64,000 bases of DNA from Phycisphaerales bacterium (GTDB lineage Bacteria > Planctomycetota > Phycisphaerae > Phycisphaerales > UBA1924), in the NCBI GenBank assembly GCA_043776515.1, contig JAYVRG010000050.1:138-64137 (forward strand). Direction: 5' to 3'. Shown piece after piece: positions 24,982 through 61,712 of this stretch. A model generated the notes under the pieces. The model searched no databases, was not told the origin of the DNA, and saw nothing but the letters and a program-made list of their open reading frames with translations. Every line of letters begins with the position of its first letter. Position 1 is the first letter of the stretch. Made by a program: the position numbers and the translations under genes.

Positions 24982-25748
24982 ATATGCAACAGATTGCATT
25001 CTTCGCTGGAGTGGTCGCGGCATCGGCCGCGCTTGCTCAACAGCCGGAGGCGAAGCCCGCTGAGAAACCGGCGGAGAAGCCAGCGGCTGCGCCGAAGCCC
25101 GCGCCGCCACCGGCGCAGCCGTCACTTGATGATCTGCTGGGCATCAAGCCCAAGCCGGGCGACAAACCAGCAGCGACGATCACACCCACCAAGCCCGAAG
25201 ATTCATCCAGCACTCCCGACGGCGCGCCGGATCAATCGCGCGCCGATCTGGATCGCCTGCTCTCGGCGCAGGAAATCGGCGATGCCTTCAAGCAGGCGAT
25301 CGCGCTGATGGGCGATGCCTCCAAGCGGATGAACGAGCACGCGGACAATGGTTTGGGAACGCAGCGCGTGCAGGAGGATGTCGTCAAGCGGCTGGATCAA
25401 CTGCTCGCGAGTTTGGACAAACAGAAACAGCAGGGCGGTGATCCCAAGCCCGGGCCGAAGAATCAGGACTCGCAGCAGGAGCCGGGACCGTCCAAGCCCA
25501 AGCCCGGGCAGGGCCAAGGGCAACCCAAACCGCAGCCGGGCGGGGATGGGATGCAGCAACACGAGGGGCCGACGTTGCAGGAGGGGACGCTGAAGCCGGA
25601 ACTGGAATCCGCACGCGCGGCGTGGGGCTCGTTGCCCGCACGCATCCGCGCCATGCTGATGCAGGGAACCGAAGATCGCTTCAGCTCTCGCTACAAAGCG
25701 TTGACGCAGGAGTATTACAAGCGGCTCGCGGAGGAGAACAGCAAGTGA
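24978..25748 (+). CDS. Secreted Pro/Lys/Gln-rich low-complexity protein
   Basis: The ATG overlaps the upstream stop (ATGA at 24978-24981). Signal peptide MNMQQIAFFAGVVAASAALAQ is present, and the conserved-looking tail is SSRYKALTQEYYKRLAEE. Confidence 0.6.
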   Translation: MNMQQIAFFAGVVAASAALAQQPEAKPAEKPAEKPAAAPKPAPPPAQPSLDDLLGIKPKPGDKPAATITPTKPEDSSSTPDGAPDQSRADLDRLLSAQEIGDAFKQAIALMGDASKRMNEHADNGLGTQRVQEDVVKRLDQLLASLDKQKQQGGDPKPGPKNQDSQQEPGPSKPKPGQGQGQPKPQPGGDGMQQHEGPTLQEGTLKPELESARAAWGSLPARIRAMLMQGTEDRFSSRYKALTQEYYKRLAEENSK

Positions 25749-25750
25749 GC

Positions 25751-27181
25751 ATGCACGAAGATCAAACGCCTGATATTGATATTCGTGCCACGGGTTCTCA
25801 TGCCACGGGTTCGCCGCCGCTTTGGGCGGCAACCCGTGACAAGACCGATGGAGTCATTGGATATCGTGCGCTCACTTCGCGCAGCACGGGTTGCCCGCTC
25901 AAAGCAGCGGGCGAACCCGTGGCACGGGCGGCAACCCGTGCGGGGAACGATGGGGTCAAAGGTCGTCGTGCAGTCGCCGCGCGGAGCACGGGTTGCCCGG
26001 CGAAGCGCCGGGCGAACCCGTGGCACGGTCGAATCGTTGGCACGATTGCGATCTTGCTTGCCACGGTGGCTCACGCGCAGTTGCTGGACCCGACGGTGAA
26101 GCCGGAAGTCTCAACACTGCCGCCACTCGAATTGCCCAAGCCCGACGAGAAACCCGCGGCGACGAAACCCACTGCTCCGGGCGCGGCCGATCCGGTGCGC
26201 TCCGCGCAGAACAACGCCGCTGCCAACGAGATCACGCCGGAACTCGACGAGATTGTTTCCAATGGGCTTAAGTATCTCGTCTCGGATCAAGGGCCGGACG
26301 GCTCCTTCGGCCAGGGGCGCTACGGCAAGAACATCGCCGTGACCGCGCTCGCCTGCATTGCGCTGATGGCCGACGGAAACACGCCGGGGCGCGGGCGCTA
26401 CGGCAAGAACGTGCAGAAGGGTTTGGAGTTCGTGCTGGCGTCATCGACGGAGACCGGCCTGCTCGCGGCGGATTCCACCAACGGCCCAATGTACGGGCAC
26501 GGGTTCGCCGCGCTTTTTCTGGGCGAGGTGTACGGCATGACCAAGGGCGGCGGAGAGACGCCGCAATCCGCGAAGGTCCATGAGGCGCTCATCAAGGCGT
26601 GTACGTTGATCCAGCGCTCGCAGAACTCCGAGGGCGGCTGGCGCTACAACCCGGTGCCGTACGACGCGGACATCTCGGTGACCATCTGCCAGATCATGGC
26701 GCTGCGCTCGGCCCGCAACGCGGGGATCGAGGTGCCCAAGGAGACGATCGACAAGGCGATCGAGTACGTCAAGCAGTGCCAGAACTCCGATGGGGGATTC
26801 CGGTATCAGGCGTCGGCGGGCGTGTCGGCGTGGCCGCGCAGCGCGGCGGGCGTGGCGGCCCTCTACTACGCGGGCATCTATAAGGACGACGCGATTGACC
26901 GGGGTGTGAAGTATGTCAACGAGAGCGCGTTCCCGGGCAAGAATCAGGGCAACACCAGCGCGCATTATTTTTACGGCCAGTATTACTCGGTGCAGACGAT
27001 GTATCTCGCGGGCGGCGAGCCGTGGGCCAAGTGGTGGCCCGCGGTGCGCTCGGAACTGAAGAACAAGCAGCAGCCCGACGGCTCATGGGCGGACCCATCG
27101 GTGGGTCCGGCGTATGGCACGGCGATGGCGCTGATCGTTTTGCAAATGCCCAAGCGATTCTTGCCGATTTTCCAGAAGTGA
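25751..27181 (+). CDS. Prenyltransferase/squalene-cyclase-repeat (alpha/alpha toroid) protein with a repeat-derived N-terminal extension
   Basis: Repeats are PDGSFGQGRYGKN, NSEGGWRYNPVPYD, NSDGGFRYQASAG and QPDGSWADPSVG. The only in-frame ATG or GTG (25751, 25745) lies upstream of the REP cluster 25785-26026. The hydrophobic segment IVGTIAILLATVAHAQ follows at 26033. Confidence 0.7.
   Translation: MHEDQTPDIDIRATGSHATGSPPLWAATRDKTDGVIGYRALTSRSTGCPLKAAGEPVARAATRAGNDGVKGRRAVAARSTGCPAKRRANPWHGRIVGTIAILLATVAHAQLLDPTVKPEVSTLPPLELPKPDEKPAATKPTAPGAADPVRSAQNNAAANEITPELDEIVSNGLKYLVSDQGPDGSFGQGRYGKNIAVTALACIALMADGNTPGRGRYGKNVQKGLEFVLASSTETGLLAADSTNGPMYGHGFAALFLGEVYGMTKGGGETPQSAKVHEALIKACTLIQRSQNSEGGWRYNPVPYDADISVTICQIMALRSARNAGIEVPKETIDKAIEYVKQCQNSDGGFRYQASAGVSAWPRSAAGVAALYYAGIYKDDAIDRGVKYVNESAFPGKNQGNTSAHYFYGQYYSVQTMYLAGGEPWAKWWPAVRSELKNKQQPDGSWADPSVGPAYGTAMALIVLQMPKRFLPIFQK
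25785..26026. mobile_element. Cluster of family-1 REP/REPIN units (one partial hairpin, one full REPIN, one half REPIN)
   Basis: gtgccacgggttc (partial) comes first. The full unit spans 25800-25926, with spacer ggatatcgtgcgctcacttcgcgca. Then ggcggcaacccgtg...cacgggttgcccggcgaagcgccgggcgaacccgtggcac follows. Confidence 0.85.
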
Positions 27182-53877: not shown

Positions 53878-54145
53878 GTGCCATGGGCTTTCCAGCCCAT
53901 GCGCCTCCGCTCCTGTGTGGCATGGGCGTCCCGCCCATGTGCCTTCGCTCCTGCGTGGCATGGGCTTTCCAGCCCATATGCTTTGGTTTCTTCATGGCCC
54001 GCCGCGGCGGGTTCGGGCGCTTCGCCCGAAACACTTCGCTCACAAGCAGCCCGACTCGAACTATCACCTCGCCACACACACACACCCAGCGCAGGGGTTG
54101 GAAGCCCATGCCACGCAAATCACGGGCGGGACGCCCGTGCCACGG
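53878..54145. mobile_element. Family-2 MITE-like composite element (268 nt) abutting tRNA-Arg
   Basis: Three left-type hairpins are present (GTGCCATGGGCTTTCCAGCCCATG, GGCATGGGCGTCCCGCCCATG, TGGCATGGGCTTTCCAGCCCATATG). The core is tggcccgccgcggcgggttcgggcgcttcgcccgaa. The right-type hairpins are ..GAAGCCCATGCCACG and CGGGCGGGACGCCCGTGCCACGG. Confidence 0.85.
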
Positions 54146-54162
54146 AGGTTGAAAAAAGGAAA

Positions 54163-54236
<74 letters not shown>

Positions 54237-54398
54237 AACGCACGGCAAAAGGATAGGGGCGATTCCTCTTGGATGAAATCGGACGGCCGCGGACTTGTGC
54301 CAGCACCGTCGGCGGGGTACCTTCTCGCGGCGCGTTCTACAAACCGGCCGCGCGTGGCGCGGCCGGTTCCACGGAAAGAGGCGTGCCAGGAGCGGTGC

Positions 54399-59172: not shown

Positions 59173-60243
59173 ATGTCCCAGCTCAACATGGATCGGCTTA
59201 TGCAGTTCATGGGCAAGGTCGTCGGCGACCTCGGCTCTTCCATGAGCACGCCTTTGGTCATTCTCGGCGACAAACTGGGGCTGTACAAGGCACTGGCAGC
59301 CGCCGGGCCAGCGGGGCTCGCCTCCGCAGAACTTGCTGGGGCGACGAGGACGCATGAGCGGTACATCCGCGAGTGGCTTGTCAACCAGGCCGCGGGCGGG
59401 TATGTCGAGTTTGACGCCAAGGCCGGACGATACAGCATGACGCCCGAGCAGGGCGCGGCGCTGGCCGATGAGACGAGTCCGTGCCATGTGCCGGGCGGCT
59501 TTTATATCGCTCTCTCGATGGCTCGCGATATCTCCAAGATCGAGAGTGCGTTCCGCACCGGCGAGGGCGTGGACTGGGGCGAGCACGATACGGACCTGTT
59601 CTGCGGAACCGAACTTTTCTTTTCCGCGTCGTACCGCGCCAATCTCATCGCCTCCTGGCTGCCCGCGCTGGAGGGCGTTGTCGCCAAGCTTGAACGCGGC
59701 GGTACCGTCTGCGATGTCGGTTGCGGGCACGGGGCATCGACCATGATCATGGCCAAGGCGTTTCCCAAGTCAACGTTCGTGGGCGTGGATGCCCATGCGC
59801 CGTCGATCGAGTGCGCCACGAATCGGGCCGCGAAGATGGGGCTGGGCGATCGATGCACGTTCGTGACGGCCAACGCGAGCGGATACGCCGCGCCCGTCGG
59901 TGGGTACGACTTCATCTGCTTCTTCGACTGCCTGCACGACATGGGGGACCCAGTCGGCGCGGCCAGGCACGCCCGGAAGTCCATCAAGGCCGATGGAACG
60001 GCGATGATTGTGGAGCCGGCGGCGACGGATGATGTGTCGGGGAATCTCAACCCGGTGGGGCGCGTGTTCAGCGCGGCCAGCACGATGATCTGCGTGCCGG
60101 CATCCATCAAGCACAAGGGACCGGCACTTGGAGCCGTCGCGGGCGAGGCCCGGCTGACCAAGGTGCTAAATGAGGGCGGCTGGGGACGCGTGCGGAAGGC
60201 GACGGCGACACCGTTCAACATGATTCTTGAGGCAAGGCCCTGA
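59173..60243 (+). CDS. Class I SAM-dependent methyltransferase
   Basis: VCDVGCGHGAST (motif I), YDFICFFDCLHDMGDP and GTAMIVEP are present. The ATG lies 9 nt after GGAG. Confidence 0.85.
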   Translation: MSQLNMDRLMQFMGKVVGDLGSSMSTPLVILGDKLGLYKALAAAGPAGLASAELAGATRTHERYIREWLVNQAAGGYVEFDAKAGRYSMTPEQGAALADETSPCHVPGGFYIALSMARDISKIESAFRTGEGVDWGEHDTDLFCGTELFFSASYRANLIASWLPALEGVVAKLERGGTVCDVGCGHGASTMIMAKAFPKSTFVGVDAHAPSIECATNRAAKMGLGDRCTFVTANASGYAAPVGGYDFICFFDCLHDMGDPVGAARHARKSIKADGTAMIVEPAATDDVSGNLNPVGRVFSAASTMICVPASIKHKGPALGAVAGEARLTKVLNEGGWGRVRKATATPFNMILEARP

Positions 60244-60371
60244 CCAGAGCGGCTACCTTCGCGTGGCACGTTGGGTCTGCCGCGCCCGGAAACGCCGAAC
60301 TGGCGCGCTGCGATCCAAACTGGCTCTACCAAGTGCGCAACCTTCGCGTGCTTCGCCGATACTCTTGCTCC

Positions 60372-61601
60372 ATGTCCGACCCATATCCCCTGCTGCTTCG
60401 CCCGGTGATCCTGGAAAAAGTCTGGGGTGGGCGCCGTCTGGAGTCGCTGGGCAAGACGCTGGAGATACCGGGCGCGAAGTACGGCGAGAGCTGGGAGCTT
60501 GCGGACATGGCCTCGACGAGCGCATCGGGCGCGGGGGGCGGCGCGGTGCGGACGCTGATTGCCAATGGGGAACTGCGCGGCAAGACGCTTGGGGATGCTC
60601 GCGCGGCGTGGGGCGCGGGGCTGCTGGGTCTGCGTGGCACGGGCGTCCCGCCCGTGGTCTTGGGTGGCACGGGCTTTCCAGCCCGTGTTTCTGGTGCGAG
60701 TAGTTCGACGCAGGCGGAACTCGGGGCGATCCGCCCCGAGCCCGCCGCGGCGGGCCACGAAGCAAATGAACATGGGCTGGAAAGCCCATGCCACGAAGCA
60801 GCCAAGGCACATGGGCAGGATGCCCATGCCACGGACTTTCCACTGCTCATCAAGTTTCTGGATGCCAGCGAGAATCTGAGCGTGCAGGTGCATCCGTCGC
60901 CGGAGTACGCCGCGTCGCGCGCGGGGGCGTTCCTGAAGACCGAGTGCTGGTACATCATTGACGCGGAGCCGGGGGCGGTCATCTATAAGGGTCTGCGGCC
61001 GGAGGTGACGCGCGAAGAGTTCTCACGGCTGGCGCGGTCGGGGGCGGCGGGCGGACGCGCTCTGGTGGACGCGATGGTCGCGCTACCCGCGGTGCCGGGA
61101 GAGTGTCACAATCTGCCCAGCGGCACGGTCCACGCGCTCGGCGCGGGCGTGCTGGTGGCGGAGGTGCAGACCCCGAGCGACACGACGTATCGGTTGTATG
61201 ACTGGGGACGCACGGGGCGGGCGCTGCATGTGGAGGAGTCGATCGCGTGCGCGAGTTTTCCGGGAGAGCCGGCGCACGCCGCGTTGCCGCGGGGGATGAC
61301 GGTGGCGCGGTGCGAACCGGGGAAGACATCGGCGCGGCTGGTGACGACGGAGTTTTTCACCGTGGATGAGTTGCGCCCGGCGGTGGGCGATGTGCTCTCG
61401 GTGGAAGCGATTCTCGGCGCGGGCGGTTCGTGCGTGGCGATCGTGGTGCTGGATGGAGAGTGCGAGCTTGTCGATGGGCGCGCGTTTCAGCCCGTCGCGC
61501 TCAAACGCGGCGACACCGCGCTGATTCCGGCGGGAATCGGGCCACAAACGCTGCTGGCGGCGGGGAGCGGGTTGCGCGTGCTCGCGGCACGGGTGGTGTG
61601 A
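60372..61601 (+). CDS. manA: Type I mannose-6-phosphate isomerase carrying a 67-codon in-frame repeat insertion
   Basis: PVILEKVWGG, GESWELAD, FPLLIKFLDASENLSVQVHP, KTECWYII, SGTVHALG and QTPSDTTYRLYDWGR are present. The insertion is at 60634-60834. Confidence 0.85.
   Translation: MSDPYPLLLRPVILEKVWGGRRLESLGKTLEIPGAKYGESWELADMASTSASGAGGGAVRTLIANGELRGKTLGDARAAWGAGLLGLRGTGVPPVVLGGTGFPARVSGASSSTQAELGAIRPEPAAAGHEANEHGLESPCHEAAKAHGQDAHATDFPLLIKFLDASENLSVQVHPSPEYAASRAGAFLKTECWYIIDAEPGAVIYKGLRPEVTREEFSRLARSGAAGGRALVDAMVALPAVPGECHNLPSGTVHALGAGVLVAEVQTPSDTTYRLYDWGRTGRALHVEESIACASFPGEPAHAALPRGMTVARCEPGKTSARLVTTEFFTVDELRPAVGDVLSVEAILGAGGSCVAIVVLDGECELVDGRAFQPVALKRGDTALIPAGIGPQTLLAAGSGLRVLAARVV
60634..60834. 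mobile_element. Family-2 MITE-like composite element (201 nt) inside the manA ORF
   Basis: The left end is GTGGCACGGGCGTCCCGCCCGTG followed by TGGCACGGGCTTTCCAGCCCGTG. The core at 60720-60758 is ctcggggcgatccgccccgag followed by cccgccgcggcgggccac. The right end is CATGGGCTGGAAAGCCCATGCCACG followed by CATGGGCAGGATGCCCATGCCACGG. Confidence 0.85.
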
Positions 61602-61615
61602 GAAACGTGAAACAA

Positions 61616-61698
61616 GGGTGCCGTGGTGGAGTCGCTTTGGACTCCGCCACGATGCTGCAACATGCGTGGCGGACTCAGAGCAGTCCACCACGGCACCC
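61616..61698. mobile_element. Family-3-like element (83 nt) between convergent manA and the comB-like gene
   Basis: The sequence is GGGTGCC-GTGGTGGAGTC-gctttg-GACTCCGCCAC ... GTGGCGGACTC-agagc-AGTCCACCAC-GGCACCC. The central tgcaaca is shared with 40926-40932. Confidence 0.7.
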
Positions 61699-61712
61699 GA
61701 TTCGATATTCGA

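Follow-up and report, generated by a model that had tools for sequence, protein, structure and literature searches.

How a dispersed palindromic repeat comes to lie in frame inside the gene for an essential-pathway enzyme, and whether the enzyme withstands it, is the question raised by manA, a phosphomannose isomerase (PMI) gene on contig JAYVRG010000050.1 of a Phycisphaerales bacterium. The stretch analyzed, hereafter the window, is 64 kb long and has a G+C content of 65%. Within manA, 201 nt of repeat DNA (67 codons) occupy positions 60634-60834, and our analyses indicate that this segment is very probably a tolerated, translated, and near-neutrally evolving insertion of the repetitive extragenic palindrome (REP)/REPIN type in a flexible linker of the enzyme. 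An earlier reading of the sequence alone (here, the original prediction) had offered three explanations, and the first of these, that the enzyme tolerates a repeat-encoded loop, is the one favored by selection on the flanks, neutral evolution of the insert, invariant metal-site residues, and a confidently modeled core.

60372..61601, + strand: manA, coding sequence of type I phosphomannose isomerase; 409 aa including the insert; Pfam PF20511, TIGR00218, 1qwr

The open reading frame (ORF) that holds manA extends over 60333..61601 on the + strand, with the ATG at 60372 as its likely start, and it traverses 60634-60834 without a stop, as had been predicted. The PMI family matches on both sides of this interval also proved to be exactly as quoted: the product reads ...NGELRGKTLGDARAAWGAGLLGL, continues as RGTGVPPV...HGQDAHAT, and resumes with DFPLLIKFLDASENLSVQVHPSPEY, and it contains the insert-spanning peptide GASSSTQAELGAIRPEPAAAGHEANEHGLESPCHEAAK. 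An identical protein is present in the database (P0001). Since the insert splits the match to TIGR00218, this model reaches 81.5 bits, against a cut-off of 116.2; PF20511 passes its own threshold, albeit with a match to a fragment only. The product also matches Bacillus subtilis PMI (1qwr; E = 2.6e-27), and in this alignment query residue 73 corresponds to chain residue 64 and query residue 154 to chain residue 81, so that ~64 residues of the query, placed between two conserved blocks, have no counterpart in 1qwr. This additional segment is exactly the 201 nt at 60634-60834 (67 codons, R88-T154).

At the DNA level this segment is a nested set of palindromes. The two hairpins predicted at its left end and the two at its right were all located, each with the form CAYGGGC-N5/6-GCCCRTG (60638-56, 60668-87, 60771-90, and 60810-28), and GTGG stands 5' of the two left hairpins and CCAC 3' of the two right ones. 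The modules are as follows (L001 to L004 being alleles from related genomes that are described below).

60631..60834, + strand: composite palindromic repeat, in frame; encodes L87-T154 and aligns end to end with an intergenic copy
60634..60656, + strand: REP unit 1; GTGG tag plus CACGGGC-GTCCC-GCCCGTG; encodes GTGVPPV
60664..60687, + strand: REP unit 2; GTGG plus CACGGGC-TTTCCA-GCCCGTG; encodes GTGFPAR; kept in alleles L001-L004
60720-60740, + strand: central hairpin 1; CTCGGGGCG-ATC-CGCCCCGAG; also in L001, L002, and L004
60740-60755, + strand: central hairpin 2; GCCCGCCG/CGGCGGGC; the two central hairpins are inverted repeats I15 and I20
60771..60794, - strand: REP unit 3, inverted; pairs with unit 2; encodes HGLESPCH
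60810..60832, - strand: REP unit 4, inverted; pairs with unit 1; encodes HGQDAHAT

Units 2 and 3 pair over 26 nt with 92% complementarity (inverted repeat I1), and units 1 and 4 pair over 24 nt with 83% complementarity (I2), while direct repeats recur with a period of 30 nt from unit 1 to unit 2 and of 38/39 nt from unit 3 to unit 4. The 221-nt region accordingly folds as one long hairpin, both as RNA (-155.2 kcal/mol, z = -12) and as DNA (-81.7 kcal/mol, z = -9). A scan for intrinsic terminators found none on the manA strand inside the element. Since CTG CGTGGCAC also terminates other copies of the repeat, the element probably starts at 60631 and would then comprise 204 nt, or 68 codons, including the preceding CTG. 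Alignment with other PMI loops suggests that the element is not simply added to the protein but has taken the place of most of a native loop of ~10 aa. The idea that the central spacer is a remnant of this native loop was ruled out by the presence of the central hairpins in the intergenic copy.

That copy had been recognized in the original prediction as a reverse-orientation homologue of a two-hairpin core, with 60720-60758 matching 53995-54030. The homology is real, but its extent is much longer: over their entire lengths, 60631-60834 and the reverse complement of 53917-54146 can be aligned, with 167 of 202 positions identical (83%), and BLAST returns 101 nt at 86% for the same pair. Both copies have the modules in the same order, namely, unit 1 (with its GTCCC loop), unit 2 (with its TTTCCAG loop), a spacer, central hairpins 1 and 2, unit 3, a 14-nt spacer, and unit 4. 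Given this end-to-end alignment and equal module order, the whole composite is one member of a repeat family, in line with the original prediction.

53917..54146, - strand: intergenic full-length homologue; the same composite, with a further REP at 53878-53901

Together with the further REP, the intergenic copy spans 53878-54146, in the gap that separates the end of a 1285-aa ORF from a tRNA-Arg(CCT) gene (54162-54237, - strand), and it stands 16 nt from the tRNA. The motifs of the repeat are strongly enriched in the window. The 11-mer GTGGCACGGGC, with one mismatch allowed, occurs 30 times against 4.4 expected (0 of 100 shuffles had as many), GCCCATGCCACG occurs 18 times against 1.3 expected, and a relaxed search found 17 REP hairpin units in the 64 kb, where ~1 to 4 would arise by chance. 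These units have a 7-bp stem (CAYGGGC/GCCCRTG) and a 5- to 6-nt loop, and measure 23 to 24 nt with the tag that directly precedes the stem on its 5' side, which is GTGG in 16 of the 17 units and GTGC in the other. All units outside manA, save one at 25919, lie past gene ends, in gaps, or upstream of Pfam-supported starts, as in an ORF for 5-enolpyruvylshikimate-3-phosphate synthase, whose domain begins at residue 58, and an ORF for 2-phosphosulpholactate phosphatase, whose domain begins at residue 79. The unit at 25919-25940 is a degenerate REP, GTGGCACGGGCGGCAACCCGTG, located ~100 codons into the longest ORF at 25622-27181 (prenyltransferase/squalene-cyclase-like), and lies either within the true coding sequence or upstream of the real start.

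The identity of the hairpins follows from what they encode. REPs have been divided into GTAG- and CGTC-tagged superfamilies, and those of Opitutus terrae carry a GTGG variant of the GTAG tag (Di Nocera, De Gregorio & Rocco 2013, BMC Genomics 14:522; PMC3733652). The peptides reported for intragenic O. terrae REPs of the GTAG-19 family are GTGVPPV, WHGRPAR, VARASRP, HGRDARAT, TGGTPVP, and RAGRPCH (PMC3733652, Additional file 3), and the six-frame translation of manA unit 1 (60634-60656) yields exactly these six. Since three overlapping frames per strand fix the DNA, the 23-mer GTGGCACGGGCGTCCCGCCCGTG is the same REP as O. terrae GTAG-19, and on the strength of the encoded peptides we assign the manA hairpins to the published GTAG-19-type family. 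The repeat is a short, GC-rich, tagged palindrome of known family with many dispersed and mainly extragenic copies, which makes it a REP of the GTAG superfamily.

An open reading frame through such an element says little by itself. The frame used is indeed stop-free, as stated in the original prediction, but the element is open in five of its six frames, which makes this weak evidence; a count of stops in the other frames, proposed as a test of whether only the open frame is tolerated, has little power for the same reason. The stop-free character in five frames also accounts for long spurious ORFs across manA on both strands, at 59502-60893 (-), 60253-60843 (-), 60326-60982 (-), and 60559-60879 (+), the longest of 463 aa. 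Their REP-coded peptides, WAFQPMF, MGWKAHAT, and RGMGFPAHV, would resemble "hypothetical proteins" to a gene caller.

Comparison with orthologues had been suggested as a check. Across the 119 PMI homologues compared, 9 aa is the commonest length of the loop that separates ...LLG from (D)FPLL, the usual range is 5 to 14 aa, and loops of at least 36 aa are found in REP carriers only. The element is absent from the orthologues P0006-9, P0011, and P0012. In P0006, the closest empty-site orthologue (89% identical), the site reads "LLG KAPGATGADTR DFP" and is repeat-free. These data establish the empty site, as expected. Shorter in-frame versions occupy the same site in four relatives (P0002-P0005), which come from five independent assemblies.

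Alleles L001 and L002: 102 nt; unit 2, spacer, central hairpin 1, unit 4
Alleles L003 and L004: 105 or 111 nt; unit 2, spacer, unit 3, plus 8 nt

Relative to the full-length architecture, the shorter alleles appear to be internal deletion derivatives. The right halves of L001 and L003 differ even though the flanks of these alleles are separated by a synonymous divergence (dS) of only 0.08, so module content turns over quickly. All six structural variants found are a multiple of three in length (3n) and stop-free in the manA frame.

A neighbor-joining tree groups P0001-P0005 together, with the empty P0006 as their sister, and places a second carrier, P0010, in another, more distant clade as sister to the empty P0011. 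In P0010, unit 1 opens an insert whose middle has decayed; the shared "GCCAAGRCAC" spacer and unit 4 follow, and beyond them the protein still has the native loop residues PGLESRGTQ. The left junction of this insert is that of the manA element (...CTG GGT / CTS CGTGGCAC). The P0011 locus shares the gene order YchF-methyltransferase-PMI-phosphatase-DinB. On this tree, two gains would be more parsimonious than one ancient insertion followed by at least five precise losses. A single insertion with later losses is a possible if less parsimonious history; excision of the IS200/IS605 type is seamless. A candidate third, decayed REP at the site, "LRGSGVGAV" in P0020, was set aside as too degenerate to call.

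The Leu-Gly codons before the element are CTG GGT in both carrier lineages (window 60610-60640; L007:360-520) and CTC GGG in three empty-site orthologues (L006, L127, and L128), amounting to two shared synonymous differences next to the junction. The shared CTG GGT could be due to chance (roughly 1 in 10), could be part of the element's end, or could be a trace of recombination. Given that the same composite occupies the same junction (after ...CTG GGT) in two clades split by empty lineages, and that modules are gained and lost in frame at a dS of 0.08, the site might be a specific target of the mobilizing machinery, or a REP-bearing loop might have recombined between diverged Phycisphaerales. 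We consider this rather unlikely; if true, the locus would be a natural time series of a protein segment born from selfish DNA.

The junctions themselves bear on the class of the element. The original prediction had called it a member of a repeat family resembling MITEs (miniature transposable elements with inverted repeats). The dispersed palindromic family is real, but no target-site duplication was found at the junctions (...CTGGGT/CTGCGTGG...GCCACG/GACTTT) in the window, L001-L004, or L007. A classical MITE of the DDE type was therefore rejected, despite the presence of inverted arms, and the lack of a duplication fits a mechanism of the IS200/IS605 type better than one of the DDE type. 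The element contains inverted REPs and a spacer that together form one hairpin, as a REPIN does, and alleles L001, L003, L004, and L007 fold alike. It is better described as a composite of REP hairpins, similar to REPINs or to the bacterial interspersed mosaic elements (BIMEs).

We next consider selection on the gene. Ratios of nonsynonymous to synonymous divergence (dN/dS) were calculated by the method of Nei and Gojobori (NG86) for the five insert carriers, which are separated by a dS of up to 0.66. With the loop excluded, dN/dS was 0.03 to 0.08 among the five carriers and ~0.10 relative to the empty-site orthologue. The parts upstream (0.035 to 0.069) and downstream (0.028 to 0.090) of the insert gave similarly low values, which implies that, since the insertion, purifying selection has acted strongly on both halves of the gene. 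For the insert itself, dN/dS among carriers was 0.26 to 1.76 over 26 alignable codons, and total divergence (Jukes-Cantor [JC], 0.14 to 0.26) was ~10-fold higher than the flank dN. The insert thus evolves near-neutrally inside a constrained gene.

An AlphaFold2 model of the manA product, built with 119 sequences, had a predicted TM score (pTM) of 0.85, with a predicted local distance difference test (pLDDT) score above 90 for nearly all residues and below 50 for residues 89-149. The modeled elements that flank the insert are helices 73-80 and 82-85 and strand 159-165, and the C-terminal junction of the insert lies 2 residues ahead of the conserved FPLLIKFLD strand. The best Foldseek match of the model was PMI 1qwr (E = 1.9e-24; TM score of 0.82, target normalized). 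The model of the empty-site orthologue P0006 (pLDDT, 95) has its secondary-structure elements in the same order, and its least confident part is the native loop (86-101), which suggests that the insert enlarges a linker that was already flexible. Modeling of the carrier and of an empty-site orthologue, in line with the proposed comparison, gave the same order of elements, and the manA product is predicted to be a confident PMI core with a disordered excursion at residues 89-149. Q172, H174, E191, and H254, which we take to be the metal ligands of type I PMI, are invariant in the 119 homologues, as are 49 other columns. Together, the catalytic domain, the metal-site residues, and the PMI fold identify the manA product as a type I PMI.

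We propose that a composite repeat of ~200 nt landed in the linker between helix 82-85 (...AWGAGLLG) and the active-site strand FPLLIKFLD. It would have been mobilized as single-stranded hairpin DNA by a REP-associated tyrosine transposase (RAYT) of the IS200/IS605-like HUH type, as has been proposed for REPs and REPINs. Since the element is 3n in length, GC rich, and almost devoid of stop codons, manA would have stayed open, and the element would be transcribed and translated as a disordered loop of 67 to 68 residues, rich in Gly, Pro, Ala, and His, that a presumably active enzyme tolerates. The shorter alleles would have arisen by deletion between the direct REP repeats (periods of 30 and 38/39 nt).

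Several points weigh against this proposal. Translation of the loop and function of the enzyme are steps that we infer, and some effect on activity is possible, since the C-terminal junction is a near neighbor in sequence of the catalytic Lys/Gln/His block. Only one assembly carries the exact 201-nt form (P0001: 1 member, 1 contig). The finding that all alleles are in frame is partly a matter of ascertainment, since only intact predicted proteins were retrieved. With respect to the mobilizing enzyme, tblastn searches with RAYT/TIRYT queries from O. terrae, Escherichia coli, Rhodopirellula baltica, and Koribacter found no RAYT in the window, and tblastn of ~950 kb of fetched loci gave only a weak TIRYT-like fragment in L072. 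This fragment, at L072:1941-2182 (- strand) in a metagenome-assembled genome (MAG) of the Terriglobia, weakly matches the TIRYT-type tyrosine transposase aba 3477 of Koribacter and has a REP match beside it, at 2074-2096. The fragment possibly represents the decayed remains of a REP-associated transposase.

Among the alternatives to a tolerated neutral loop, the one that survives best is co-option, in which the mRNA hairpin tunes the translation or stability of manA, or the loop has gained a function in the protein. Differences between alleles amount to 4 to 16% in the REP stems, 5 to 24% in the central hairpin, and 16 to 34% in the spacer; one stem pair has changed from C-G to T-A via a mismatch intermediate; the long hairpin is kept in four of the five alleles; and the same loop is occupied in two separate clades. 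However, dN/dS in the insert is ~1, the gene remains constrained in L002 even though this allele lacks the long hairpin (z = -1.5), and module content differs between L001 and L003, which are very close relatives. Conversion from other copies, or simply the young age of the elements, could explain the conserved stems equally well. We therefore regard co-option as very unlikely, although a regulatory effect of the mRNA hairpin is weakly suggested as a possibility.

It is more improbable still that the four-hairpin, 201-nt form is an assembly artefact, produced by misjoining or expansion of repeats, and that the real allele resembles the 102- to 111-nt forms. Besides the restriction of this form to a single assembly, short-read assemblers struggle with repeats, and neither the left nor the right manA/element junction gave a match when Joint Genome Institute (JGI) metagenome contigs were scanned for the exact patterns. 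Against this, the element lies inside a 130-kb contig with unique sequence on both sides, its module order equals that of the independent full-length copy 6.5 kb away, shorter versions occupy the same site in the five independent assemblies, and the frame would be kept by chance only 1 time in 3.

We give slightly less credence again to the view, raised in the original prediction, that the element is bypassed or removed before the mature protein is formed, whether as an intron-like RNA, by translational bypassing, or by protein splicing. A stand-alone hairpin this stable (z = -12), with sharply defined ends and no protein-level constraint on its peptide, could be read in this way. However, an Rfam scan of 60200-61700 in E-value mode, group I and II introns included, found no family at threshold, the only matches being sub-threshold, chance-level microRNA (miRNA) and small RNA (sRNA) hits of 18 to 29 bits against gathering scores of 45 to 100, and the segment is a low-complexity Gly/Pro/Ala sequence without intein-like features. 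The maintenance of a 3n, stop-free manA frame in all six variants would be needless if the segment were excised, and identical REP peptides occur in frame in many unrelated genes.

The remaining suggestion, that manA is a cryptic pseudogene whose enzyme was killed by the insertion and whose frame is open only for lack of time to decay, can be rejected: while the element is large (67 aa), stops 2 residues short of the conserved active-site strand, imposes an mRNA hairpin of -155 kcal/mol, and leaves five of six frames open, so that an open frame alone proves little, the five carrier lineages lie 0.08 to 0.66 apart in dS with flank dN/dS of 0.03 to 0.09, the metal-site residues and 49 other columns are invariant, and nonsynonymous change is ~10 times faster in the insert than in its flanks.

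The same REP is found well beyond this locus. An exact-pattern scan for GTGGCAYGGGC-N5/6-GCCCRTG in one genome per species (596 Gb) returned at least 118 loci (L009-L126), although a data set of that size could, on a rough estimate, contain some hundreds of matches by chance.

Planctomycetota: at least 65 loci
Verrucomicrobiota / Kiritimatiellia / Lentisphaerae: at least 26 loci
Acidobacteriota: at least 10 loci
Armatimonadota: at least 5 loci
Other groups: at least 12 loci

Chance does not account, however, for the skew of the matches listed toward certain taxa, or for the many inverted pairs at close spacing among them. Conservation of a 23-nt repeat across phyla suggests horizontal spread of the transposase system or a very conserved recognition site. 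Five of the loci listed, all in other genomes, encode Pfam-verified proteins that contain the REP in frame.

L121:2911-4149, + strand: AnmK with a REP trimer, Opitutus sp. GAS368 (Pfam)
L090:3-2618, - strand: MeaB-methylmalonyl-CoA mutase fusion with two separate REP sites, Planctomycetota S40-2 (Pfam)
L024:61-1797, + strand: pectate lyase, Kiritimatiellae (Pfam)
L118:5548-6885, - strand: UPF0261 protein, Opitutaceae (Pfam)
L063:1207-2409, + strand: radical SAM protein, Planctomycetota (Pfam)

A second, unrelated palindromic element lies at 61616-61698, directly after the manA stop codon and before a convergent phosphatase gene. It contains the inverted hairpins GTGGTGGAGTC...GACTCCGCCAC and GTGGCGGACTC...GTCCACCAC and forms one long hairpin (-66.8 kcal/mol, z = -8.45). 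It occurs once in the window, and its Rfam matches are weak and miRNA-like; possible identities are a REPIN from a different family and a bidirectional terminator.

The manA insert has practical consequences for annotation. Inserts of this kind depress family-model scores, as seen with TIGR00218 (below cut-off) and PF20511 (fragment only), create spurious "hypothetical protein" ORFs on other strands, and can mislead annotation and the prediction of domain boundaries in MAGs. The locus also documents the absorption of selfish palindromic DNA into an essential-pathway enzyme as a predicted disordered loop, with comparative evidence that is unusually complete: the empty site and the full-length element are joined by four in-frame alleles shortened by apparent deletion and by another lineage in which the site is occupied.

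Of the known systems with which the element can be compared, the BIMEs of enterobacteria are extragenic mosaics of REPs in alternating orientation with conserved linker motifs. The recurrence of the same linkers in the manA and intergenic copies is BIME-like, whereas BIMEs differ in being extragenic and in using another REP family (GTAG-3 in the scheme of PMC3733652). REPINs consist of two inverted REPs that form a hairpin, with RAYT transposases as their proposed mobilizers (Bertels & Rainey 2011; PMC3116915, PMC3337134). Like REPINs, the repeat described here is dispersed and mostly extragenic; unlike them, since REPINs are described as extragenic, the manA element lies in a coding region, and it is nested or doubled, with four REPs.

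The Rickettsia palindromic elements (RPEs) are described as selfish repeats of 100 to 150 bp that occur in frame in unrelated metabolic genes and, once translated, add peptide segments that the proteins are judged to accommodate in both fold and function (Ogata et al. 2000 Science 290:347; 2002 Genome Res 12:808; both as summarized in PMC10969869). The likeness to manA, a palindromic repeat read in frame, is functional only. RPEs belong to another host and sequence family and are not made of GTAG-type REP hairpins; RPE-4 and RPE-6 are of the CGTC type (PMC3733652).

The closest counterpart is the GTAG-19 family of O. terrae, part of a catalogue in which REPs lie in frame within many genes and encode stretches of up to 82 aa (PMC3733652). 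The GTGG tag, the 7-bp CAYGGGC stem, and the 5- to 6-nt loop are the same as in the manA element, and O. terrae likewise has head-to-head dimers and clusters in frame within housekeeping genes ("GTGVPPV...HGRDARAT"), such as "GTGVPPVDSGSASDDHGRDARAT" in UvrA and "GTGVPPVMADQPHGRDARAT" in UTP-glucose-1-phosphate uridylyltransferase (PMC3733652). In contrast to these cases, the host here is a planctomycete rather than a verrucomicrobium and the target is manA; the REPs are built into a larger conserved composite in which each arm has two of them, the spacers are fixed, and a pair of hairpins forms the center; and it has an allelic series across related genomes. In-frame REPs of the GTAG-19 type and RPEs are already in the literature, and manA is a new example rather than a new mechanism, one that extends the O. 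terrae observation to the Planctomycetota and places the same 23-nt REP across the Planctomycetes-Verrucomicrobia-Chlamydiae (PVC) group and neighboring phyla.

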